32,000 bases of DNA, taken from the NCBI RefSeq assembly GCF_000009705.1, contig NC_003240.1, forward strand, positions 60,001 through 92,000. Direction: 5' to 3'. This document shows, piece after piece, positions 2,861-16,735 of the stretch (its first letter is position 1; the number at the start of each line of letters is the position of its first letter). The position numbers and the translations under genes are program-made. This DNA comes from Nostoc sp. PCC 7120 = FACHB-418 (GTDB taxonomy: Bacteria; Cyanobacteriota; Cyanobacteriia; Cyanobacteriales; Nostocaceae). Under the pieces are notes generated by a model, which was given only the letters and a program-made list of their open reading frames with translations, did no database searches and was not told where the DNA came from.

Positions 2861-4231
2861 ATGAAACTAAGCATTGAACAATCTAAACTCGCAGAAATTC
2901 TAGAAACCGCTTATTTCGCAATTAGTCCTAAGCCCACTGACCCAATTTTAGGAAATATCTTACTGATAGCAAATGAAGATGGGATAGTATCAGCAACAGG
3001 AACAAACCTTAACCTCACAATTCATACTACAACTACGGCTAATGTAGAAACTTCAGGTCAGGTAGCACTACCAGCCAAACTATTAACTGACACTATTAAC
3101 AATGTCAGAGGAGAAATTACCTTAGAGGTAGAAAACCAAGCCTGCATAATTACTCACAATAGCGGTAAATGCCGTCTGATTGGCGGAAAACCTGACGAGT
3201 TTCCAACTCTTCCCAAAGGAGAAAATCCAATAGAAGTAAATTTAAGTGCCAAGAAACTCCAAGCCGCACTTGAAGGGACACTATATTGCACCAATGGTGA
3301 CGAAACAAAGTTAGTTCTAACTGGTGTCAACTTCAAAATTGATACTAATAAGTGGCAAGCTGCTAGTACAAATGGTCACAAATTAGCACTAGTCACAGGA
3401 ACACTTGATAGCGAATATTCTGACCCAATTGACTTTACTGTTCCAGGTAAGTCACTTAGTGAGTTAAGCAAAATTCTCTCTCAAAGTGCTGATACAAGCG
3501 TGTGCAATATTCTTCTATCAAATAAAACTATTGAGTTTAGTCTTCCTCACACAAAAGTCATTTCCCGACTTTTAGAGGGAGAATACCCCAAAATCAATAG
3601 CTTGATTCCCAGAACATTTGAGTATGAATTTACATTAGAACGCAAGGGATTTGAGAGCGCACTGAAGCGGGTAAGTTATCTAGCCGAACGCAAGCAAAAG
3701 GTTGTCAAAATTCTCTGGGAATTGGAAGCTACACAGGCAACACTATACACCGAAGCTACTGATATCGGGGATGCAGTTGACTCGGTACTGATGAAACCAG
3801 CAACTAATCATTCAGAAAACATCAGTATTGGATTAAATATCGACTACCTTCTCGAAGGATTAAAGCACATTAGTACTGATGAAATCGTGGTGCGGTGTAA
3901 CAAACCCACGCAACCAGTCATTATCTGCCCAATGGGAGGACTGCTCAATCAGTTGTATCTAGTAATGCCTGTAGAAATTAAGCAGGGGTTTGAAAATAAA
4001 TCCACCCCAAGCAAAACGACAACAGCAGAGAAAACTCCTGAAGCATTGGAAACAACAGAAACTACTGTAGTAGCCGAACTAGAAGAAGCCATAAATAATA
4101 CTCAGACTTCTCAAACGGAAAGCAATGGTGAAACCTCTGAAGTAGAGACATCAACAGCTGAGGCCAAAGCTAGTAACAAAAGTAAGCCTAGTTCGCGTAC
4201 ACGAGCCAAGAAAGAGGCTGCTTCTGTATAA
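2861..4231 (+). CDS. dnaN: DNA polymerase III beta subunit (sliding clamp) with a ~82-aa low-complexity C-terminal extension
   Basis: The N-terminus MKLSIEQSKLAEILETAYFAISPKPTDPILGNILL and the canonical C-terminal ...LYLVMPVEI are typical of DnaN. The extra T/E/S-rich tail lies at 3983-4228. Confidence 0.9.
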   Translation: MKLSIEQSKLAEILETAYFAISPKPTDPILGNILLIANEDGIVSATGTNLNLTIHTTTTANVETSGQVALPAKLLTDTINNVRGEITLEVENQACIITHNSGKCRLIGGKPDEFPTLPKGENPIEVNLSAKKLQAALEGTLYCTNGDETKLVLTGVNFKIDTNKWQAASTNGHKLALVTGTLDSEYSDPIDFTVPGKSLSELSKILSQSADTSVCNILLSNKTIEFSLPHTKVISRLLEGEYPKINSLIPRTFEYEFTLERKGFESALKRVSYLAERKQKVVKILWELEATQATLYTEATDIGDAVDSVLMKPATNHSENISIGLNIDYLLEGLKHISTDEIVVRCNKPTQPVIICPMGGLLNQLYLVMPVEIKQGFENKSTPSKTTTAEKTPEALETTETTVVAELEEAINNTQTSQTESNGETSEVETSTAEAKASNKSKPSSRTRAKKEAASV

Positions 4232-4293: not shown

Positions 4294-5583
4294 ATGTACC
4301 GACCACTACATCTCAAATACCGTCCCCAGATTCTTAGTGAAGTTATTGGGCAAGAACATATCGTTCGCACTCTCATAAATGCGATCGCATTCCAAAAGAT
4401 TGCACCTGCTTACCTATTTAGTGGCCCCAAAGGTACAGGTAAAACCAGTACCGCCCGCATCATCGCTAAATCTCTTAACTGTCAATCAAGCAATGAGCCG
4501 ACAACTAAGCCCTGTGGAGAATGCAATTCATGCAAGGGAATTACGGCATCTTCTTCTGTTGATGTAACCGAACTGGATGCAGCAAGCAATAGTGGGGTAG
4601 AACTGATCCGAGAGCTTATATCCACTACCCAATTTGCACCAGTGGAGAGTAGATTCAAAATATTCATTATTGATGAATGTCATGCCCTAAGTAGCCAATC
4701 GTGGCAAGCACTCCTCAAAACCATTGAAAGCCCTCCCCGTCATGTAGTATTTATCTTCTGCACAACCGAGTTACACAAAGTTCCAGAAACGATTGTCTCC
4801 CGTTGCCAAAAGTTTGACTTTAAGAGAGTTCCTGTCTCGCTAGTTGCAAGCTACCTAGAAAAAATATCTCACCAGGAAAGTATCAACATTGCGCCATCAG
4901 CAGTTACCGCCGTAGCTAAAGCAAACAAGGGACATCTGCGCGACTCACTCAAACTGTTAGATCAGCTAACCTTACTAGGTGAAGAGGAAATTACCTATAA
5001 CTGGGTTTGGGAACTATCAGGCACTATTCCCGAATACGATCTACTCACCGTCTGTGAAAATATCATCAAAGGAGAAATTACGGGGAATTTAGGCATCCTT
5101 CAAGATTGGATTGAATCTGGTAAACAGCCAACTGCTATCCATACAAGTCTTGTCAACTTCCTCAAAGACTTACTTGTGTGCAAAACTAATCCCAATGGCA
5201 GACATCTTACACAGCTAGAACAGGACACCTGGGAGGAATTAGTAAGTATCTCGCAGTTGTGGAATATCGACCAGATCCGAAACGCGATCGCAATCTTAAT
5301 GGCACGCCAAAGTCTCATGCGGGATGAAGACGCGCACCTTTGGTTGGAAGCTACACTTATCGAGATAGTGCCAACCAACAAGGGTAGTCACCAATCACAA
5401 CCCTGGAAAGATTGGAAAACTGCTCAAGATGCAATTAACTGGGGCAAGGAACAGTTACCCCACTTAACACAAGCGCAGTTACAAGAACACTGGCAAAAGC
5501 TGACACCTATTAATGGTAAAAAGGCACCTGCTTGGGTAGAAGCTGTCCAAAAGCTGCAACAAAAACAATTACAGCAAGCTTAA
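4294..5583 (+). CDS. dnaX: DNA polymerase III gamma-type clamp-loader subunit (short DnaX, no tau C-terminal domains)
   Basis: MYRPLHLKYRPQILSEVIGQEHIV, Walker A GPKGTGKTS, zinc module CGECNSCKG, Walker B FIIDECH, and SRC (VSRCQKF). I prefer the ATG at 4294 to the TTG at 4282. Confidence 0.9.
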   Translation: MYRPLHLKYRPQILSEVIGQEHIVRTLINAIAFQKIAPAYLFSGPKGTGKTSTARIIAKSLNCQSSNEPTTKPCGECNSCKGITASSSVDVTELDAASNSGVELIRELISTTQFAPVESRFKIFIIDECHALSSQSWQALLKTIESPPRHVVFIFCTTELHKVPETIVSRCQKFDFKRVPVSLVASYLEKISHQESINIAPSAVTAVAKANKGHLRDSLKLLDQLTLLGEEEITYNWVWELSGTIPEYDLLTVCENIIKGEITGNLGILQDWIESGKQPTAIHTSLVNFLKDLLVCKTNPNGRHLTQLEQDTWEELVSISQLWNIDQIRNAIAILMARQSLMRDEDAHLWLEATLIEIVPTNKGSHQSQPWKDWKTAQDAINWGKEQLPHLTQAQLQEHWQKLTPINGKKAPAWVEAVQKLQQKQLQQA

Positions 5584-5692: not shown

Positions 5693-6319
5693 TTAGGCAA
5701 CCTGCATCAATTCCATACATTTCTTTGAAAGTTCGTCTGCCACTGACACAGATTCTACATCAATACATATAAATCCGAGATGTTCAACCTTCTCCCTCAT
5801 GCGTTTATTATATAATAAGGTACGGTCTAAAAACTTTTGAATTAGGTACTTTTTATCCTCACTTACATTATAAAAATTACTTTCACTAAAGATTCGGTAA
5901 GAGAAGAGTTGGTCACTAGCCGTAAGCCAAATCGCTTTAACACCATTTTCGCTAACTAAATTCGCTACAAATTCAGGCCATAATGCAGAGCCTTCAAGGA
6001 TAAGGCATTCCGTTGATAAATCAGACGCATGAGAATGAACGATAATCTCGACTTGCGGTAACACATTTTTCTCATAATGCGACAATACATCTACAAAAAG
6101 AGCGTCAACAGACAAAGTTCCATAATGTTCTGCTACGTGTTCTGGAATAGCATTTCTATTTGCACCCACCCAAGGATGTCCAGGATGCCGAGCGAGTTTG
6201 TCTGTAGAACGATAACTCCAACCAAGCCTCGCCGCCAAAGATTGGCCAAGGGTGGATTTGCCTACATGAGAGGAGCCACCAATTAAAATCACTCGTGTTT
6301 CATTGCTTAATTCATTCAT
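5693..6319 (-). CDS. P-loop NTPase / small-molecule kinase-like protein
   Basis: Walker A motif LIGGSSHVGKST near the N-terminus. The size (208 aa) fits the kinase-like P-loop families. This is the only minus-strand gene between dnaX and polB. Confidence 0.6.
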   Translation of the reverse strand: MNELSNETRVILIGGSSHVGKSTLGQSLAARLGWSYRSTDKLARHPGHPWVGANRNAIPEHVAEHYGTLSVDALFVDVLSHYEKNVLPQVEIIVHSHASDLSTECLILEGSALWPEFVANLVSENGVKAIWLTASDQLFSYRIFSESNFYNVSEDKKYLIQKFLDRTLLYNKRMREKVEHLGFICIDVESVSVADELSKKCMELMQVA

Positions 6320-6461: not shown

Positions 6462-8279
6462 ATGAGTTATAACCACAGAGATTTTGTGAGAAAATCTAGA
6501 GGGATAATCGTTGTCGATGAAGACAAACTAAACATTTATTGGAAAGATCCCTCTTCAATAAAACCTTGGCAACCCAAAATACAACTCAAGCCATACCAGG
6601 AACTTTCACAAATATTTGTTGATATCGAAACAGCAGGAATCAACTCATTTGAAAGCCGTATTTATGCTATTGGTTGTATGGATTCAAGGGGATATTCTAC
6701 TATTTTCATGGATATCTCAGAAGCTAAAATACTAACCAAATTTATCAACCATCTCAGTAAAAGAAATCCAGATGTAATTTTCACATATAACGGGATGGCA
6801 TTTGATATTCCATTTATTATTACTCGATGCAACTTGCACGGTATAAAACACCCATTTAAAGTTGCATCCAAATCTCGGACTATTCGTACCGCCCAAGTAC
6901 GGGGCGAGCCACTAAAAATTCAGGAGGTGTTCATCCGAAATAGCCAACACGTAGACATTTATATCTGCGTTCTGAGGTGGGATTTCATAGCCAAAAAGCT
7001 AACTAACGGCAGATCGCTCAAAAAGGCTGTATTGGACATGGGACTGCGCCAGAACACCAGGCTAGTTCTTCCCTATGAGGAAATCCTCGCTTGTTGGAAA
7101 GATGGCCCCAATAGCAAGGGATGGAAACGGCTAAAAGAATATCTTATTTACGACCTTGAAGACACCCGGCTAATTGCAAATAGACTTGTACCCTCATACT
7201 ATTACGAAGCACTAATTGTACCGGAAATGAATCTCCAGCAGCTAACACTTGCTGGTAATGGTACTAAATGGGAACGAATATTTGAGCATCATTATCCAGG
7301 TTATAAACCAAAACCCCATCGCAAGTACAAATTCCAAGGAGGGATGGCTTACTCTATTCCTGGATTGTATAGAAGGGTTGGATATGCAGATATTAGCTCA
7401 ATGCATCCTTGGGCAATGCTAGACAAGGGTATTTGCTCAATTAAAGATACAGAACGTATTGGGCTAAGTATTCTGCAATATTTGGTAAATGAAAAATTTA
7501 GGTTGGAACAACTTGCATCTGCTGGAGATGTTGCTGCTAAGGAAAAAAGAGAATCAGTCAAGGTTTTAGCTAACTCCGAATTTGGATTCTTAGGCACCTC
7601 TGAACTCGCCTTCAATGATATGGAGGCTGCTGCATTAGTTACAGCCTACAGTCGAAAAGTACTCAAGCTAATGATTGAAATTATCACGCGGTACGGCGGT
7701 ACTCCTGTGGAAGTTGACACAGATGGAGTGTTCTTCACACATCCCAACCCAGAAGAGGTACGTAGTTTACTTCAATCTCAATTGCCCAAAGGGATAACTG
7801 TCAAGCTAGAGTTTATCGCTGACGCTATGTTTATCCCCGAACGGGGAACCAAAAATTACCTTTTATGGCTTCCAGACGGGAAAATCATCACTAAAGGCAA
7901 CTGGCGCAACCGCGATCGCTCTCAACTAGAGAAAGAGTTTTCTATTGAGTATTTAACCCTGCTAATTCAAAATGTATCAGCAGCAGAAGATTATTATGCA
8001 CACATCAAATCCCAGATTTTATCAAGGGAATATCCAAAAGAAAAACTTGCAATTACACGCAAGATTAAAGAGGGCGAAAAAGAAATACTCAAACTAGGGA
8101 AACCTGGAGATGTAGTAACTTACTATTACGGAATTAGCGGCATAACCAATATCAGCAGTAATGAGAATTACTCACGTCAATACTATCTTCACCTTATTGA
8201 AAAAAGGCGAGAAGAAATTCTCAAAATAGCTGCTCCTACAACACTAGAAAGTAACAAACGTCAATTATCTCTTTTCTAA
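6462..8279 (+). CDS. polB: compact family-B DNA polymerase with 3'-5' exonuclease motifs and a C-terminal QLSLF clamp-binding motif
   Basis: ExoI FVDIETAG (aa ~54), ExoII YNGMAFDIPF, ExoIII YLIYDLED, pre-motif A FQGGMAYSIPGLY, motif A YADISSMHPW, motif B KVLANSEFG, motif C VEVDTDG, KxY TKNY. The last five residues are QLSLF. Confidence 0.85.
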   Translation: MSYNHRDFVRKSRGIIVVDEDKLNIYWKDPSSIKPWQPKIQLKPYQELSQIFVDIETAGINSFESRIYAIGCMDSRGYSTIFMDISEAKILTKFINHLSKRNPDVIFTYNGMAFDIPFIITRCNLHGIKHPFKVASKSRTIRTAQVRGEPLKIQEVFIRNSQHVDIYICVLRWDFIAKKLTNGRSLKKAVLDMGLRQNTRLVLPYEEILACWKDGPNSKGWKRLKEYLIYDLEDTRLIANRLVPSYYYEALIVPEMNLQQLTLAGNGTKWERIFEHHYPGYKPKPHRKYKFQGGMAYSIPGLYRRVGYADISSMHPWAMLDKGICSIKDTERIGLSILQYLVNEKFRLEQLASAGDVAAKEKRESVKVLANSEFGFLGTSELAFNDMEAAALVTAYSRKVLKLMIEIITRYGGTPVEVDTDGVFFTHPNPEEVRSLLQSQLPKGITVKLEFIADAMFIPERGTKNYLLWLPDGKIITKGNWRNRDRSQLEKEFSIEYLTLLIQNVSAAEDYYAHIKSQILSREYPKEKLAITRKIKEGEKEILKLGKPGDVVTYYYGISGITNISSNENYSRQYYLHLIEKRREEILKIAAPTTLESNKRQLSLF

Positions 8280-8367: not shown

Positions 8368-9150
8368 ATGAAAAATAAATCCGCTTCTCGCAAGCCCAGA
8401 CTTAATAAAAAGCAAAGGGCTTGGGTAAACTCATTCCTTTCGTCTCATCCTAATGCCAGAGTTAGAACTATCTACGAATTAGATGGCGATCGCGTAGTTC
8501 AAATTGAGTGGTGGGAAAACACAAACCCAGTAATATTAGACCCAAAAACTTACATCCAAGGAATTATCAGCTACAACATGTGGGTCAAACTAAGAAAGTC
8601 TGGCGACCCCAGGAAAACAGCTGAGTTTTCTTATCGCATTACCCCACCAGAAAAACGAAGTGCATCATGGCACTTAACAGGTCAACTCTCTCTAGAACTT
8701 CCCCAATGTTACGAAGTTACAGAACCAAACAACCCAGTTATCATTAAACCAAAAAGGAGAAATGCTCAAACCAAAAAAGTTAAAAAATTTCTTCAATATA
8801 CTCTTCCTTTATCAGAAATTAGTGTTCAACTTCATACTACAAATATAGAAGATAATGGTGTTACTCTATCTGGACAAGAAATATTACTAGAAAACACATC
8901 GCAGCTAAATTTAGATACTGGTAAAGACACTAAACTTCCCGAAGCTATAGTCAAAAGTCTCTCAGAGAAACAAGCCGACTTAAAGGAATGGGAAACAGCC
9001 ATTACACTATACGAGGTAGCTGGTTATAGTGGAGTAATAGAGTATCTTCAACAGTTAGATTCTTGGCGCAAATACTTGGGTAATAAACCAGTAGATAACC
9101 ATATTGATAAAGACTCAATTCAAAATTTCGTACAACCAGTACAAACTTAA
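8368..9150 (+). CDS. hypothetical protein (260 aa) with a basic N-terminus and an internal QLSLEL
   Basis: Long ORF between polB and holA, followed by a good terminator. No family recognised. Confidence 0.55.
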   Translation: MKNKSASRKPRLNKKQRAWVNSFLSSHPNARVRTIYELDGDRVVQIEWWENTNPVILDPKTYIQGIISYNMWVKLRKSGDPRKTAEFSYRITPPEKRSASWHLTGQLSLELPQCYEVTEPNNPVIIKPKRRNAQTKKVKKFLQYTLPLSEISVQLHTTNIEDNGVTLSGQEILLENTSQLNLDTGKDTKLPEAIVKSLSEKQADLKEWETAITLYEVAGYSGVIEYLQQLDSWRKYLGNKPVDNHIDKDSIQNFVQPVQT

Positions 9151-9273: not shown

Positions 9274-10233
9274 ATGCCAGTATACCTATACTACGGCGAA
9301 GATACCTATTCGCTCAATCAAAAAATTAACCATTTGGTGAATCAAAATGTTCATGCTGAATGGAAAGATTTCAACTACATCAAGCTATCTGGAAATGAGA
9401 AAAATATCACTGCCAAGGTTTTTACTGAGGTTATGACTTTGCCCTTTGGAGATGGTAACAAAATTGTTCATACAGACAGCGATCATTTAATTGAAAGTTT
9501 ATCAAATGAGGATAATAACCAAGAACTTGAAAATCAACTTTCTCGAATACCTGCAAGTAACATTCTTTTAATTGCTAGTAACAAAAAGCCAGATTCCCGC
9601 AGAACAGTAGTAAAAACTATCCTAAAATATGCTCAACAAGAAGAGTTTCCTCTCGTTCCTTGTTGGGATAAAAAGGGGATAGTTAATTTGATAGGAAAGT
9701 ATGCAGCTATCCATCAAGTTAAACTTACACCGGATGTGACTGATTATCTAGTCGAAGCAATTGGTAATAACACTGCAAGAGCCGATAGCGAATTTGCTAA
9801 ACTTGCTGTCTATGCAATTGAAAAAATTATTTCCCTTGAGGAAATAAAACAATTAGTTAGTAATCACAATACTGACTACCAAAAGCTTACTATTGCTATG
9901 TTAAGGAATCATTCAAACTTGGCAATAGCACAAGTGGATAAACTACTAGATAGTAATGAACATCCACTCAAAATAGTAGCAACTATTACGTCAATTTTTC
10001 GTACTTGGCTAATAACTAAAGCTGGCGTAGAAGCTAAGTTATCTGACATGAAGATTGCAGAAATAGCCGAATTGAAGAACCCTAAAAGATTGTATTACCT
10101 CAAAGATGAAATCAAGTTTGTAGGCGTTCAAAAACTGAAAAATAGCCTTACCTTACTTTTACAACTCGAAACGGAACTCAAAAGCGGCACTAACAATTTA
10201 ACTAGCCGAATTATCGAAATTTGCACGATATGA
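9274..10233 (+). CDS. holA: DNA polymerase III delta subunit
   Basis: The N-terminus MPVYLYYGEDTYSLNQKI and the LVEAIGNNTARADSEFAKLAVYA segment match the HolA pattern, as does the length (319 aa). Its stop overlaps the holB start. Confidence 0.8.
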   Translation: MPVYLYYGEDTYSLNQKINHLVNQNVHAEWKDFNYIKLSGNEKNITAKVFTEVMTLPFGDGNKIVHTDSDHLIESLSNEDNNQELENQLSRIPASNILLIASNKKPDSRRTVVKTILKYAQQEEFPLVPCWDKKGIVNLIGKYAAIHQVKLTPDVTDYLVEAIGNNTARADSEFAKLAVYAIEKIISLEEIKQLVSNHNTDYQKLTIAMLRNHSNLAIAQVDKLLDSNEHPLKIVATITSIFRTWLITKAGVEAKLSDMKIAEIAELKNPKRLYYLKDEIKFVGVQKLKNSLTLLLQLETELKSGTNNLTSRIIEICTI

Positions 10234-11105
10234 AAAACGACTTATTTACAGAAATCATCGGACAGCATACCGCCAAACTTCTACTAACTGAAGCAATCGA
10301 ACGTAATCAAATTGCTCCCGCATACCTATTTAGCAACGAAGTTGAGGGAGTGGGCAAAGGAAAAATTGCTTTGGCATTTGCAAATGCAATACTCTCAAGA
10401 GGAAGTCGCTCCGCGATCGCAGGAGAATCTAAACATCTAGACATCTTACAAATCAAACCAAGCTATACCGAAAACACCTCCCAGCAGAAAGGTGTACCTG
10501 CTATTCGAGTAGAACAGGTGCGCGAGGTAATTGAATTTCTCTCAACTAGTGCAGTCGAGGGCAAGCAAAAGGTTGTGATTATCCACGAAGCAGATATGCT
10601 CAACCCTACTGCCGCTAACAAACTTCTTAAGACGCTGGAAGAACCTAAAACTGGAACGTTTATTCTGATATCATCCTATCCTCAAAAGCTATTACTCACT
10701 ATCAAGAGTAGGTGTCAAATCATACCTTTCCAAAGGTTAACTGATGAGGAGGTTATTTCTGTCCTTAAAGACCAACAGATTGAGGCAACAGAAAAAATAC
10801 TAGCTATCAGTTCGGGCAGTCCTGGTCAAGCGATCGCCAACATGACAATGTTAGCTTCCATCTCACAAGAAATCACAAGCCAACTCGAAGTACCTCCTGA
10901 CGATATCCTCAAGGCACTCAGTTTGAGTAACTGCATCTCAAGCTGGAATCACCAAACGCAGTTATGGTTGCTTACCTACCTGCAATACAACTGGTGGCAG
11001 AAATTAAAAAGCACTATGCTACTAGCCAAATTCACTCAAGCAAGAAAGCAATTGCTGCATCACGTTACTCCTAGAAGCGTTTGGGATAGCCTACTTCTGC
11101 CATAG
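10230..11105 (+). CDS. holB: DNA polymerase III delta' subunit
   Basis: IIGQHTAKLLLTEAIERNQIAPAYLF, a degenerate P-loop, KVVIIHEADMLNPTAANKLLKTLEEP, and SRC (KSRCQIIPF). The ATG at 10230 overlaps the holA TGA (ATGA). Confidence 0.85.
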   Translation: MKNDLFTEIIGQHTAKLLLTEAIERNQIAPAYLFSNEVEGVGKGKIALAFANAILSRGSRSAIAGESKHLDILQIKPSYTENTSQQKGVPAIRVEQVREVIEFLSTSAVEGKQKVVIIHEADMLNPTAANKLLKTLEEPKTGTFILISSYPQKLLLTIKSRCQIIPFQRLTDEEVISVLKDQQIEATEKILAISSGSPGQAIANMTMLASISQEITSQLEVPPDDILKALSLSNCISSWNHQTQLWLLTYLQYNWWQKLKSTMLLAKFTQARKQLLHHVTPRSVWDSLLLP

Positions 11106-11183: not shown

Positions 11184-11855
11184 ATGAACCAGCAACACAG
11201 TTTATTCAATGTCGAAGAAACCATCCGCAACAGTAAAAACCAAAAAACCAGCGAAATATTAAACCCTAGCACTAGAAAGATACTTCAGTTACTAACCAGT
11301 CAAGGGATTAACAAAGCTGTAACAGCCAGCCTACTCGATCTAGCAGGAGCAAGTCGTGAAATTGTTCAATACATCGCTGGGCCAATTGTCACTCAGCAGA
11401 ACGGCTGGCAACAGTCAATTCCCACTTGGGTTTGGCGCGCGATCGCAGTTGATAGATTAGACGCAGCTTTACAAGAGATAGACAAGGGAGAAGTAGGTAA
11501 ACTCGCCTCTAGCAGCGAAGTCGTTGCACTGATGATGCCAATTGCTTTTGAAGTGCCGCTATCATCTGAATGGACAGATGTTTATCTCTGGGCAAGTTAT
11601 GATGCCCTCGTTAGGCACAGACCTTTCAAGAATTTTAACTATGAAAACCTCTGGGAGAAGATTGGTACAACTCCGGTTTCGTATGACAAAATTCGCTCTG
11701 ATTATGAAACCCTTGCTGCTGATATTCGTTCTCGTGTAGTCAAACACGCGGCGAAAGAGGGATGGGGTAAGAAGTCTTCAAATAACAACAAACACCCTGT
11801 TACAGCAAATTCAACTGAAAGTAATACGAAGATGGAGCAATTGTCACTGTTTTAA
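11184..11855 (+). CDS. hypothetical protein (223 aa) ending in the clamp-binding pentapeptide QLSLF
   Basis: ORF directly after holB. The C-terminus is ...NTKMEQLSLF, and the N-terminus MNQQHSLFNV carries a second motif-like peptide. Confidence 0.6.
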   Translation: MNQQHSLFNVEETIRNSKNQKTSEILNPSTRKILQLLTSQGINKAVTASLLDLAGASREIVQYIAGPIVTQQNGWQQSIPTWVWRAIAVDRLDAALQEIDKGEVGKLASSSEVVALMMPIAFEVPLSSEWTDVYLWASYDALVRHRPFKNFNYENLWEKIGTTPVSYDKIRSDYETLAADIRSRVVKHAAKEGWGKKSSNNNKHPVTANSTESNTKMEQLSLF

Positions 11856-14006: not shown

Positions 14007-14390
14007 ATGAACTATATCAACAAAGTCATGCTAGTTGGCAGATGTGGACAAGAACCTGATCTGAAATTTTTCGAGTCGGGTGCAGTTAAGGCTTCAATCT
14101 CTATTGCAGTAAGACCGCCCTACAGAAGTGAACAAGCCCTTTGGTTTGATTTAGTCGCTTGGGGAAATCAAGCAGAAGTGATTGGAAATTACGTTCGTAA
14201 AGGAACTCAGATTGCAATTACTGGTGAGTTTGGATTTGATCGTTGGGCTGATAAAAATTCTGGCACTATGCGACAAAAACCTGTAATCACAATCAACACC
14301 ATCGAATTATTAGGTTCACCCCGTAAAGAAGAATCTACATCCACTTCTGCACCAAACGAAACACAGGCTGTAGCTAACGCAAATTTCTAG
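14007..14390 (+). CDS. ssb: single-stranded DNA-binding protein, short form lacking the acidic C-terminal tip
   Basis: OB-fold pattern NKVMLVGRCGQEPDLKFF...WFDLVAWGNQAEVIGNYVRKGTQIAITGEF. It ends ...AVANANF, with no Gly-rich linker and no D-D-D-I-P-F type tip. Confidence 0.85.
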   Translation: MNYINKVMLVGRCGQEPDLKFFESGAVKASISIAVRPPYRSEQALWFDLVAWGNQAEVIGNYVRKGTQIAITGEFGFDRWADKNSGTMRQKPVITINTIELLGSPRKEESTSTSAPNETQAVANANF

Positions 14391-14463: not shown

Positions 14464-14883
14464 ATGATTCATAATACTGCAACTATTAATCTTAAATCAG
14501 TGAACACAACCCACGACAAAGAAGGTTCCTTGATTGCTTTTGGGATTGCTGAATTCTACTACCGTTCCAAGGAAGGAGTCGTTACTGACGAGATACCATT
14601 CCGTTCCAAGGGCGCACCTGCTGTCGTTATCAACGAACAGGGGGAAGGCGTACATGGTACAGCAGAAGGATATCTTGATTTAGTGGTAGATAACAGGGGT
14701 GAGTACAAAGAAAAGATTGCCACATTCGTAATTAAAAACTTTATCTCAGCACAACCGATTAACGAACTTACCCAAGTTAGCAAAAACTCTCACTCGCCTG
14801 AAACTCCCGATTTTGCCAAGGAACTACTCGAAGATAACGTTACTTCGACAAATGAAGACCTAGACGAAGAACCTCCATTTTAG
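14464..14883 (+). CDS. hypothetical protein (139 aa) ending in an SSB-like acidic tip (DLDEEPPF)
   Basis: ORF directly downstream of ssb. Its C-terminus NEDLDEEPPF resembles the SSB interaction tip. Confidence 0.6.
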   Translation: MIHNTATINLKSVNTTHDKEGSLIAFGIAEFYYRSKEGVVTDEIPFRSKGAPAVVINEQGEGVHGTAEGYLDLVVDNRGEYKEKIATFVIKNFISAQPINELTQVSKNSHSPETPDFAKELLEDNVTSTNEDLDEEPPF

Positions 14884-15020: not shown

Positions 15021-15791
15021 ATGTCATCAACCAAAATAATTGCCACTTTCAATCAGTCAGGTGGTGCAGCTAAGACAACTATTACACACAATCTTGGATA
15101 CCACCTTGCTAAAAAACATCGTGTACTGCTTGTGGATATGGACCCACAAGCATCACTAACAGCTTTTATGGGATTAGGAGAAGTCAAGCTGCAAACTGAA
15201 CAAACTATCTATGGCGCGATCGCTGAAGAAACTCCCCTCTATGTATGGGAAAAACCCATTTACGGGATGCACCTTGTGCCTACAAATATACAATTGGCAG
15301 GTACGGAGCAAAAAATTTTCCATGACCTGACCATCGACAACCGCCAACGGCTCAAGTTTGCACTCTCAAATGTACTTGACCAGTATGATTATATTTTGAT
15401 TGATTGTCCGCCTTCTCTAGGAATCCTAAGCATTATGAGCTTAGTAGCTGCTTCACACGTTATTATTCCTGTTGAGACACAATACAAGTGCTATCTTGGC
15501 ACCAATCAACTGCTAGAAACAATTGCCCGGCTTAAAAAAGGAGGACACCAGAAATTACAAATTGCCTGTATAATTCCAACCAAATACGATAATCGTAATC
15601 TTCAAGACACAGGAATACTGGAAGAAATTAAACAACAGGTTGAAGGACGGATACATGTTACTGCCCCCATTCCTAAATCAACAGCTTTTCCTGACGCAAC
15701 CCAAGCACATCTACCACTTGCACTCCACAAAAAAAACCACCCCGCAGTTAGCATACTCGAAGAAATCACAAAATATATCACTCAACTATGA
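15021..15791 (+). CDS. parA: ParA-family partition ATPase with a deviant Walker A lacking the signature lysine
   Basis: IIATFNQSGGAAKTTITHNLG (Walker A), LLVDMDPQ, ILIDCPPSLG. Its end overlaps the parB start by 4 nt. Confidence 0.9.
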   Translation: MSSTKIIATFNQSGGAAKTTITHNLGYHLAKKHRVLLVDMDPQASLTAFMGLGEVKLQTEQTIYGAIAEETPLYVWEKPIYGMHLVPTNIQLAGTEQKIFHDLTIDNRQRLKFALSNVLDQYDYILIDCPPSLGILSIMSLVAASHVIIPVETQYKCYLGTNQLLETIARLKKGGHQKLQIACIIPTKYDNRNLQDTGILEEIKQQVEGRIHVTAPIPKSTAFPDATQAHLPLALHKKNHPAVSILEEITKYITQL

Positions 15792-16735
15792 GCCAAAAAC
15801 GCGAACTAGAAAAACTCACCGGACTCGATAATTTATTTGGAGACGAAGAAGAACAATCCTTATCCGATTCCACTTTACCTTTATCCCAAATCATCCTTCC
15901 GCCGAGTCAGCCCCGTCGCTATTTTGACCCTGTAAAACTCAAATCGCTCGCCAACAGCATTAAGGAAGTGGGTTTATTAGAACCCATAGCCGTCAGAAAG
16001 ATTGAGGAAGACAAGTACGAACTTATCGCTGGTGAACGCCGTCTCAAAGCTTGTGAAATTGCAGGACTTGAGGAAATTTCTGTAGTCATTCTTGAATGTG
16101 ACGAGAAAAAAGCTCGCAAACTCCGCTTAGTTGAAAACCTCCAGAGGGAAGACCTCAACGCTTATGAGGAAACTATCGGAATTCTCGAACTACTTGCCGA
16201 AGAACTCGATCTTGACCAAGAAGCGGTGGTCTCTCTTCTATATCAGATGAATAATGAGACAAAAGGAAATTCTAACCATAACGTTATGGTTAGTGAAGAA
16301 GCACTTGCTATACAAACAATATTCCTCCAGATAGGCAAGATATCTTGGGAATCGTTTGTATCCAACCGCCTTCCTCTACTCAAACTTCCTCAAGATATCC
16401 AAATCACCCTTGAAAAGGGTCAAATCGAGTATACAAAAGCACAAGTGATTGCACGTATCAAGGATAATAAAAAGCGGCAAAATATTTTAAAAAAAGCTAT
16501 TGAAGAAAATCTGTCATTATCTGCAATCAAAGAGTTAGTGGGGGATATTCTCCCAATTCAATCAGAAAACAAGCCGCAGTCTCCCCAGCAACAAAATAAA
16601 GAAAGAGCAAGCAAAATATACAAATCACTGCTTAAGAGCAAAATCTGGGATGACGAGAAAAAAGTAAAAAAAGTTAATCGTCTTTTTGACCAAATTGAAG
16701 CACTTTTAGAAGAAAAGAAGGAGGATGCTTCTTGA
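15788..16735 (+). CDS. parB: ParB-family partition protein
   Basis: ParB-box motifs GLLEPIAVRK and YELIAGERRLKA. The C-terminus is charged. Confidence 0.9.
   Translation: MSQKRELEKLTGLDNLFGDEEEQSLSDSTLPLSQIILPPSQPRRYFDPVKLKSLANSIKEVGLLEPIAVRKIEEDKYELIAGERRLKACEIAGLEEISVVILECDEKKARKLRLVENLQREDLNAYEETIGILELLAEELDLDQEAVVSLLYQMNNETKGNSNHNVMVSEEALAIQTIFLQIGKISWESFVSNRLPLLKLPQDIQITLEKGQIEYTKAQVIARIKDNKKRQNILKKAIEENLSLSAIKELVGDILPIQSENKPQSPQQQNKERASKIYKSLLKSKIWDDEKKVKKVNRLFDQIEALLEEKKEDAS

Follow-up and report, generated by a model that had tools for sequence, protein, structure and literature searches.

The pentapeptide QLSLF that closes a compact family-B DNA polymerase (PolB) encoded in a 32,000-nucleotide stretch of Nostoc sp. 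PCC 7120 = FACHB-418 (contig NC_003240.1, positions 60,001 to 92,000; the whole stretch is hereafter the window) is very probably a functional clamp-binding motif (CBM) on a flexible tail, one that would make PolB the processive core of a plasmid hybrid replisome with the beta sliding clamp (DnaN) as its hub. An earlier note, made from the letters of this DNA, had proposed that the polymerase is tethered by this peptide to a beta clamp, most simply the one encoded upstream. The window comes from a large Nostocales plasmid, and its PolB is 97-98% identical to genes of 215-300-kb conjugative (MOBP/MPF_T) plasmids of Trichormus, Scytonema, Tolypothrix, Nostoc, Aulosira and Microchaete. From established CBM biology we infer that PolB binds the clamp and that binding makes it processive; the plasmid clamp, and not the host's, is taken to be its main partner.

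The polB reading frame ends in the codons CAA TTA TCT CTT TTC followed by TAA (8277-8279), and the protein in ...LESNKRQLSLF, with the pentapeptide directly before the stop as the earlier note had read it. The match to the bacterial consensus QL[S/D]LF and the likeness to the QLGLF of Escherichia coli Pol II also hold; the C-terminal peptide of Pol II, TLMTGQLGLF, sits in the beta-clamp pocket (PMC3716654). The C-terminus of PolC is QLSLF as well, and the PolC-clamp interaction is essential (PMC12309361). QL[SDT]LF occurs twice in a six-frame translation of the entire 32-kb window, both times as the final five residues of an open reading frame (ORF) of the same replication cluster, namely PolB and orf223 (11838-11852). 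Given how often each amino acid occurs in the proteins of the cluster, a random QL[SD]LF end has a probability of ~2e-6 per protein, or ~6e-5 for 30 proteins. The tip is exposed and flexible in an AlphaFold 2 (AF2) model, where the last five residues have a predicted local distance difference test score (pLDDT) of 47 against 74 for the preceding block.

The earlier note held that its claim would fail if the motif were not conserved at the C-terminus of orthologs. Such conservation is clear. All members of an alignment of 24 sequences have Q601, and the conservation of L602, L604 and F605 is 92% or higher; mean conservation is 88% in the motif columns versus 43% in the 15 residues before them, and the pentapeptide is thus, on this alignment, an island of conservation behind a variable linker. 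Full-length database homologs down to ~46% identity all end in QL[ST]LF, barring P0025 (another C-terminus), P0027 and P0051 (two residues beyond the motif), P0034 (MTLSLF), P0048 (QFSLF) and the truncated P0052, and QL[ST][LI]F is found in 58 of 98 full-length homologs, all close ones included. A scan of genomic loci, restricted to one genome per species, found relatives in 172 genomes; 80 loci were kept, all of them cyanobacterial, and five plasmid loci were added. Every intact polB copy in these ~85 loci, over a range of 41-98% identity, ends in QL[ST][LI]F with few exceptions (two QLSL[LF]-type ends with one substitution, two residues past QLSLF in L078, and QLTLL in two Leptolyngbya copies).

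The wider clade comprises 2135 representatives at E < 1e-30, and a C-terminal CBM is present in 24 of 145 diverse representatives at 50% identity. This count rejects a CBM universal in the PolB clade and indicates that the motif is specifically maintained and not a by-product of the fold. Many clade members are fusions of 1400-1900 amino acids (aa) with PolB at the C-terminal end (representatives P0261-P0399). In a separate subset of the clade, to which the Salinibacter-type relatives belong, the C-terminus reads D-[DE]-V-P-F and is more like the tip of single-stranded DNA-binding protein (SSB) than a CBM.

PolB contains the Pfam domains DNA_pol_B_exo1, RNase_H_2 and DNA_pol_B. The residues D54/E56, D115, Y227/D231, D310, K367/N371/G375 and D419/D421 are invariant or nearly so among 46 homologs reaching down to 24% identity. 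Since the catalytic residues of both active sites are kept, PolB should be an active, complete proofreading B-family polymerase. The AF2 model, built on the 46-sequence alignment, has a pLDDT of 92.3 and a predicted template modelling score of 0.84, and the best 50 Foldseek matches in the PDB are archaeal PolBs only (KOD, 9°N, Deep Vent, Pfu Pol/PCNA 3A2F; E ~1e-30, TMq ~0.71). HMMER alignments equate D54, D310, K367 and D419 with D141, D404, K487 and D540 of KOD. The archaeal PolB N-terminal domain has ~130 aa; offsets of ~87-100 residues to KOD and Deep Vent in the HMMER alignments indicate that ~90-100 N-terminal residues are missing from PolB, and a conserved stub of ~45 aa is left. The absence of the large N-terminal domain noted earlier is therefore correct in the sense that most of it is missing, and ExoI does lie within the first 60 aa. 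Of the spacings between motifs that had been called short, both values hold, but only the A-B distance is short (57 residues versus 83 in KOD, a difference of 26); the B-C distance of 52 is normal, with 53 in KOD.

The Glu of motif C (E417, in E-x-D-T-D-G) is invariant in the 24-sequence alignment. This residue is the signature of the bacterial group G3 ('EpsilonN-like'), which includes Nostoc and Salinibacter phage PolBs (Kazlauskas et al. 2020, PMC7544198). PolB fits the G3 signature, and by pairwise identity its best phage matches are those of Nostoc phages N1/A1 (38-39%) and of Salinibacter phages (25-28%). It is not an ortholog of Pol II (group G1), as the NCBIfam Pol II models score 18-45 bits, far under their cut-offs of 570-1103, and the N-terminal domain is absent. 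A protein-primed or primer-independent enzyme was likewise rejected. Primer-independent PolBs lack the first Asp of motif C and protein-primed types have a fold with TPR insertions (PMC7544198), whereas both motif C Asp residues are present here and no protein-primed enzyme is among the best 50 Foldseek matches.

The gene order of the module is DUF5895, dnaN, dnaX, polB, orf260, holA, holB, with SSB and ParAB genes near (Table 1). The clamp expected ~2 kb upstream was found there, dnaN ending at 4231, 2.2 kb before the start of polB. Almost all loci with flanks of sufficient length contain dnaN, dnaX, holA and holB, and they do so in Nostocales, Chroococcidiopsidales and Chroococcales. The DnaX-like protein has a Walker A motif (GPKGTGKT, 4423-4446) and an SRC motif (4798-4806), and tau domains IV/V were not detected in it by Pfam scan or by reading of the sequence. 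In sister plasmids a DEAD/DEAH helicase and a PriCT-2 primase-polymerase (prim-pol) extend the module on its upstream side. On the 215-kb plasmid of Tolypothrix PCC 7601 PolB and the prim-pol are the only polymerases annotated in a gene table that is incomplete, which means that a clamp and a full loader are encoded with one processive-type polymerase, PolB. The motif is absent from the PolB of Nostoc phage N1 (39% identity), and no DnaN, DnaX, HolA or HolB homologs were found in the whole N1 genome; the Deinococcus plasmid relatives also have neither motif nor clamp.

Table 1. Features of the polB replication module and its surroundings. Positions are those of the window; motif positions are also given as PolB residues.
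Feature	Position	Strand	Basis or remark
DNA methyltransferase-like protein, 351 aa	114..1169	+	PHROG DNA methyltransferase matches, E ~1e-50
DUF5895	1789-2781
DnaN, plasmid-type beta sliding clamp, 456 aa	2861..4231	+	three DNA_pol3_beta Pfam domains
DnaN acidic, T/S-rich low-complexity C-terminal extension, ~83 aa	3980..4228	+	basic tip SRTRAKKEAASV at 4193-4228
DnaX-like clamp-loader ATPase, 433 aa	4282..5583	+	Pfam DNA_pol3_delta2, AAA, DNAX lid, gamma3
Small P-loop kinase-like gene between dnaX and polB	5693-6319	-
polB, compact family-B DNA polymerase, exonuclease and polymerase	6462..8279	+	605-aa ORF
ExoI FVDIET	residues 52-57; 6615-6632	+	motif reading
ExoII YNGMAFD	residues 109-115	+	motif reading
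ExoIII YLIYDLED	residues 227-234	+	motif reading
Motif A DISSMHP	residues 310-316; 7389-7409	+	motif reading
Motif B KVLANSEFG	residues 367-375; 7560-7586	+	motif reading
Motif C EVDTDG	residues 417-422; 7710-7727	+	motif reading
Putative C-terminal beta-clamp-binding pentapeptide QLSLF	residues 601-605; 8262..8276	+	sequence, ortholog conservation; consensus match
orf260, directly 3' of polB, syntenic	8368..9150	+
HolA (delta) clamp-loader subunit	9274..10233	+	Pfam DNA_pol3_delta, delta_C
HolB (delta') clamp-loader subunit	10221..11105	+	Pfam DNA_pol3_delta2
orf223, predicted mostly helical	11184..11855	+
SSB, plasmid, non-canonical ANANF tip	14007..14390	+	Pfam SSB; tip conserved
ParA/ParB partition pair flanking module	15021..16735	+	Pfam

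The peptide-binding pocket of the plasmid clamp was examined by aligning the E. coli beta sequence (checked to be identical to PDB 1MMI) with the DnaN of the window, 15 plasmid-type DnaNs and eight chromosomal cyanobacterial DnaNs. The plasmid DnaN keeps the pocket positions T172, G174, H175, R/K176, L177, P242, N320, Y323, M362 and P363 (E. coli numbering), with the segment TNGHKL at 3368-3385 and a normal beta C-terminus, MPVEI, at 3965-3979; G174 is replaced by Ser in three plasmid-type DnaNs. Clades of PolB ending in QLSLF and in QLTLF showed no obvious difference in the DnaN pocket when the alignment was compared by eye. Overall identity between the plasmid DnaN and chromosomal cyanobacterial DnaNs is 36-40%. 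The chromosomal proteins terminate at ...MPVQ[VI]R[SN], whereas all plasmid-type DnaNs in the alignment continue into a tail of 55-105 aa with a conserved basic tip, which is absent from the chromosomal ones.

Besides PolB, four protein families of the module have conserved terminal or internal QLSL-type motifs. The first of them along the window, the methyltransferase-like protein, begins M-QLSLL (117-131), an N-terminus kept as MQLSL[LF] to 60% identity; in eukaryotes DNMT1-PCNA couples methylation to replication, and by analogy this protein is a candidate clamp-tethered, replication-coupled methyltransferase. An internal QLSLEL (8683-8700) lies within GQLSLELPQ of orf260, in all cases the next gene after polB, and fits the hexapeptide CBM type QLxLx[LI]; the stretch GQLSL[EDYT][LI]PQ is conserved to 30% identity, and orf260 may be an accessory subunit of PolB or a further clamp client. 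In orf223 there are two motifs, an N-terminal QHSLF (11193-11207) and the C-terminal QLSLF; its homologs keep C-terminal QL[ST]LF, followed by 0-2 extra residues, to 39% identity and N-terminal Q-x-[ST]-L-F to ~50%. The protein could engage both pockets of one clamp dimer, and its AF2 model (pLDDT 49.5) was too poor for fold assignment. In sister plasmids a 155-160-aa protein encoded after the prim-pol ends NQL[ST]LF (L087, 8271-8753; L002, 3167-3634).

Also in sister plasmids, a 1733-aa Calothrix protein ends KQLSLFDL (L004, 16733-21934), and the delta' of the Anabaena/Chroococcidiopsis clade has an N-terminal QLDLL, QLELL or QLNLL extension (L002, 18820-19842; L003, 17224-18240). Over all cyanobacterial loci, 139 of 316 occurrences of QLxL[FL] lie within three residues of a C-terminus versus ~5 expected, with counts that are inflated by homology. 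Such a spread of tagged proteins would look like the pattern of a clamp hub with several docking partners.

Based on these features, the plasmid DnaX/delta/delta' loader would place the beta2 ring on a primed template, and the Q, L, L and F side chains of the PolB tail would fill the hydrophobic cleft between clamp domains II and III, as the Pol II peptide does (PMC3716654). This tether would render the compact proofreading PolB processive and make it the catalytic core of a hybrid replisome in which an archaeo-eukaryotic-type PolB works with a bacterial-type clamp, loader and SSB and, in sister plasmids, with the prim-pol and helicase. The two pockets of the beta dimer would be shared with, or contested by, the other tagged plasmid proteins. 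A bolder version, which we put forward tentatively and think unlikely to hold in full, is that large conjugative cyanobacterial plasmids carry a self-contained hybrid replisome in which a G3-type PolB and not Pol III is the processive enzyme, and the tailed clamp docks orf260, orf223, the neighbour of the prim-pol and a CBM-bearing methyltransferase that couples methylation to replication.

Several observations weigh against a dedicated pairing of PolB with the plasmid clamp or against PolB as the plasmid replicase. The chromosomal cyanobacterial DnaNs hold the same pocket residues as the plasmid DnaN; with the pocket alike in both, sequence alone does not decide which clamp is the partner, and plausibly the plasmid clamp can take QLSLF and the host clamp can as well. 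QLSLF is moreover a universal consensus (PMC3716654, PMC12309361), and CBM-like ends occur in relatives with no dnaN within 10 kb, namely the cyanophage-like P0070 (...QLSLFS), the Mu-like P0096 (...QLSLELAVV) and the prophage protein P0091 (...QLSLMK), as well as in the solitary Leptolyngbya copies ending QLTLL, which have no clamp gene near. A search of the 10 kb around clamp-less relatives with a DnaN hidden Markov model found no hidden divergent clamp better than E = 0.6. A dedicated clamp is therefore no prerequisite for the motif, and these phage, prophage and Leptolyngbya relatives presumably use that of the host. It is conceivable, if in our view doubtful, that PolB does the same: the CBM would be real, but its working partner would be the host chromosomal clamp, or either clamp interchangeably, and the plasmid clamp would serve mainly other clients or copy number. 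The near-perfect linkage, in three cyanobacterial orders, between polB and a dnaN and complete loader of its own speaks against this, as do the annotation of PolB and the prim-pol as the plasmid's only polymerases and the plasmid-specific DnaN lineage, whose conserved tail suggests a dedicated machine. The link to the upstream clamp drawn in the earlier note thus stands as far as a co-encoded clamp, a complete loader and a kept pocket go; as a partner, that clamp cannot be told apart from the host's, the pocket being the same in both.

The interrupted copies of polB bear on what the enzyme does for the plasmid. An IS5-like insertion sequence, ISAva7, interrupts the gene in two T. variabilis strains, ATCC 29413 (on its plasmid C) and 0441 (L092, 9025-11730; H2). 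There dnaN, dnaX, holA and holB remain intact, and both the 300-kb plasmid and the other parts of the module have been retained; truncated or decayed copies are found in L056, L071, L081 and L084. In the two interrupted strains, at least, the plasmid is thus maintained without an intact polB, and this speaks against PolB as a replicase that the plasmid cannot do without. Every host plasmid that was typed is conjugative or mobilizable (MOBP/MPF_T), and anti-restriction-like genes (methyltransferases, an ArdC-like zincin) are near. These points would suit an accessory module, acting in repair or damage tolerance like Pol II, in complementary-strand synthesis or in establishment after conjugation instead of vegetative replication, with the CBM still tethering PolB; we see this as a real possibility, though not the one we expect. 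The module, however, adjoins ParA/ParB, its proofreading sites are intact, and the set of full loader, SSB, prim-pol and helicase exceeds the needs of a repair polymerase. On the plasmid of Tolypothrix PCC 7601 a distance of ~110 kb separates the relaxase from the module, which adjoins ParAB; the site of the module is not an obvious leading region, and a location of the module in a conjugative leading region is not supported. Two other readings concern the peptide itself. Its C-terminal position in several unrelated proteins of a conjugative plasmid might suggest a non-clamp signal, such as a tag for type IV secretion or degradation, but the exact beta-clamp consensus, its N-terminal (methyltransferase, delta') and internal (orf260) occurrences, its presence in phage PolBs without a type IV secretion system and its constant linkage to dnaN in plasmids make this very improbable. 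A chance hydrophobic C-terminus without function has only the shortness of the motif in its favour and is effectively refuted by the low random expectation and by conservation over 41-98% identity while the linker varies.

The reading of QLSLF as a clamp tether has close parallels in known systems, none of which matches this one throughout. E. coli Pol II has ~783 aa; PolB here has 605, most of the N-terminal domain being missing, and belongs to another clade with motif C E-x-DTDG and Nostoc and Salinibacter phage PolBs as nearest relatives. Pol II is also encoded by a chromosomal SOS gene and uses the host clamp, whereas PolB is plasmid-borne and linked to its own clamp and loader. The likeness to Pol II, which works with the beta clamp and gamma complex, lies in a proofreading family-B enzyme, RNA/DNA-primed, with QLxLF at the extreme C-terminus (PMC3716654). 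Firmicutes PolC, a replicative enzyme with an essential clamp contact, has the identical C-terminal QLSLF (PMC12309361), but it is a chromosomal C-family polymerase of unrelated fold. The T4/RB69 gp43-gp45-gp44/62 system resembles the module in that a mobile element encodes a PolB along with a dedicated ring clamp and ATPase loader, and this PolB carries its clamp peptide at the C-terminus; archaeal PolB-PCNA (PDB 3A2F, among the best Foldseek matches) likewise has a C-terminal clamp peptide. Those systems use a trimeric PCNA or gp45, an RFC-like loader and a PCNA-interacting-peptide (PIP)-type motif, whereas here the clamp is of the beta dimer type, the loader of the gamma-complex type and the motif a bacterial CBM. 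The G3 PolBs of Nostoc phages N1/A1 share the motif C signature but lack a C-terminal CBM. Clamp linkage or a CBM for G3 is not described in the main text of the PolB survey (PMC7544198).

Other features of the plasmids were noted in passing. What lies between dnaX and polB differs among plasmids; in those of Tolypothrix and Nostoc C052 it is a class I S-adenosylmethionine-dependent methyltransferase. Conserved C-terminal tips resembling SSB tails occur in DUF5895 (...EELPY, 2764-2778), in orf139 between SSB and ParA/ParB (...EEPPF, 14866-14880) and in SSB itself (...ANANF, 14373-14387), a hint that the module may contain a second network of docking peptides. No family match for orf260, orf223, orf139, orf391, orf240 or orf95 came from scans with Pfam, NCBIfam and PHROG. 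Just upstream of the module in sister plasmids, outside the window, a prokaryotic trio of E2, MPN (JAB) and ThiF (E1-like) genes is conserved (L087, 9950-12116; L001, 1810-3958; L002, 4795-7203). Two different versions of the PolB module are present in one genome in Nostoc CCY 9925 (L013/L040), Phormidium LEGE 05292 (L072/L075), Chlorogloeopsis ULAP02 (L025/L048) and one metagenome-assembled genome (L037/L061); both versions carry the same CBM, so the peptide does not make them orthogonal.

We found no description of a cyanobacterial plasmid PolB/clamp module in the searchable literature; one paper does no more than list DnaN along with DUF5895 for viral contigs of Planktothrix. Since tethering through a C-terminal QLxLF is well known from Pol II and PolC, the novelty does not lie in the mechanism. 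What appears new is the setting: a minimal PolB of G3/'EpsilonN-like' signature with a dedicated, tailed clamp of bacterial type, a minimal gamma-type loader and several CBM-bearing partners on conjugative plasmids. The module is found on plasmids of at least three cyanobacterial orders. Its tagged partners, the methyltransferase among them, make the question of what rides the clamp directly testable. If confirmed, the compact PolB/beta/loader set could be used for biochemistry or synthetic orthogonal replication, and these plasmids would be an example from nature of a bacterial replicon that pairs a B-family polymerase with a beta clamp.

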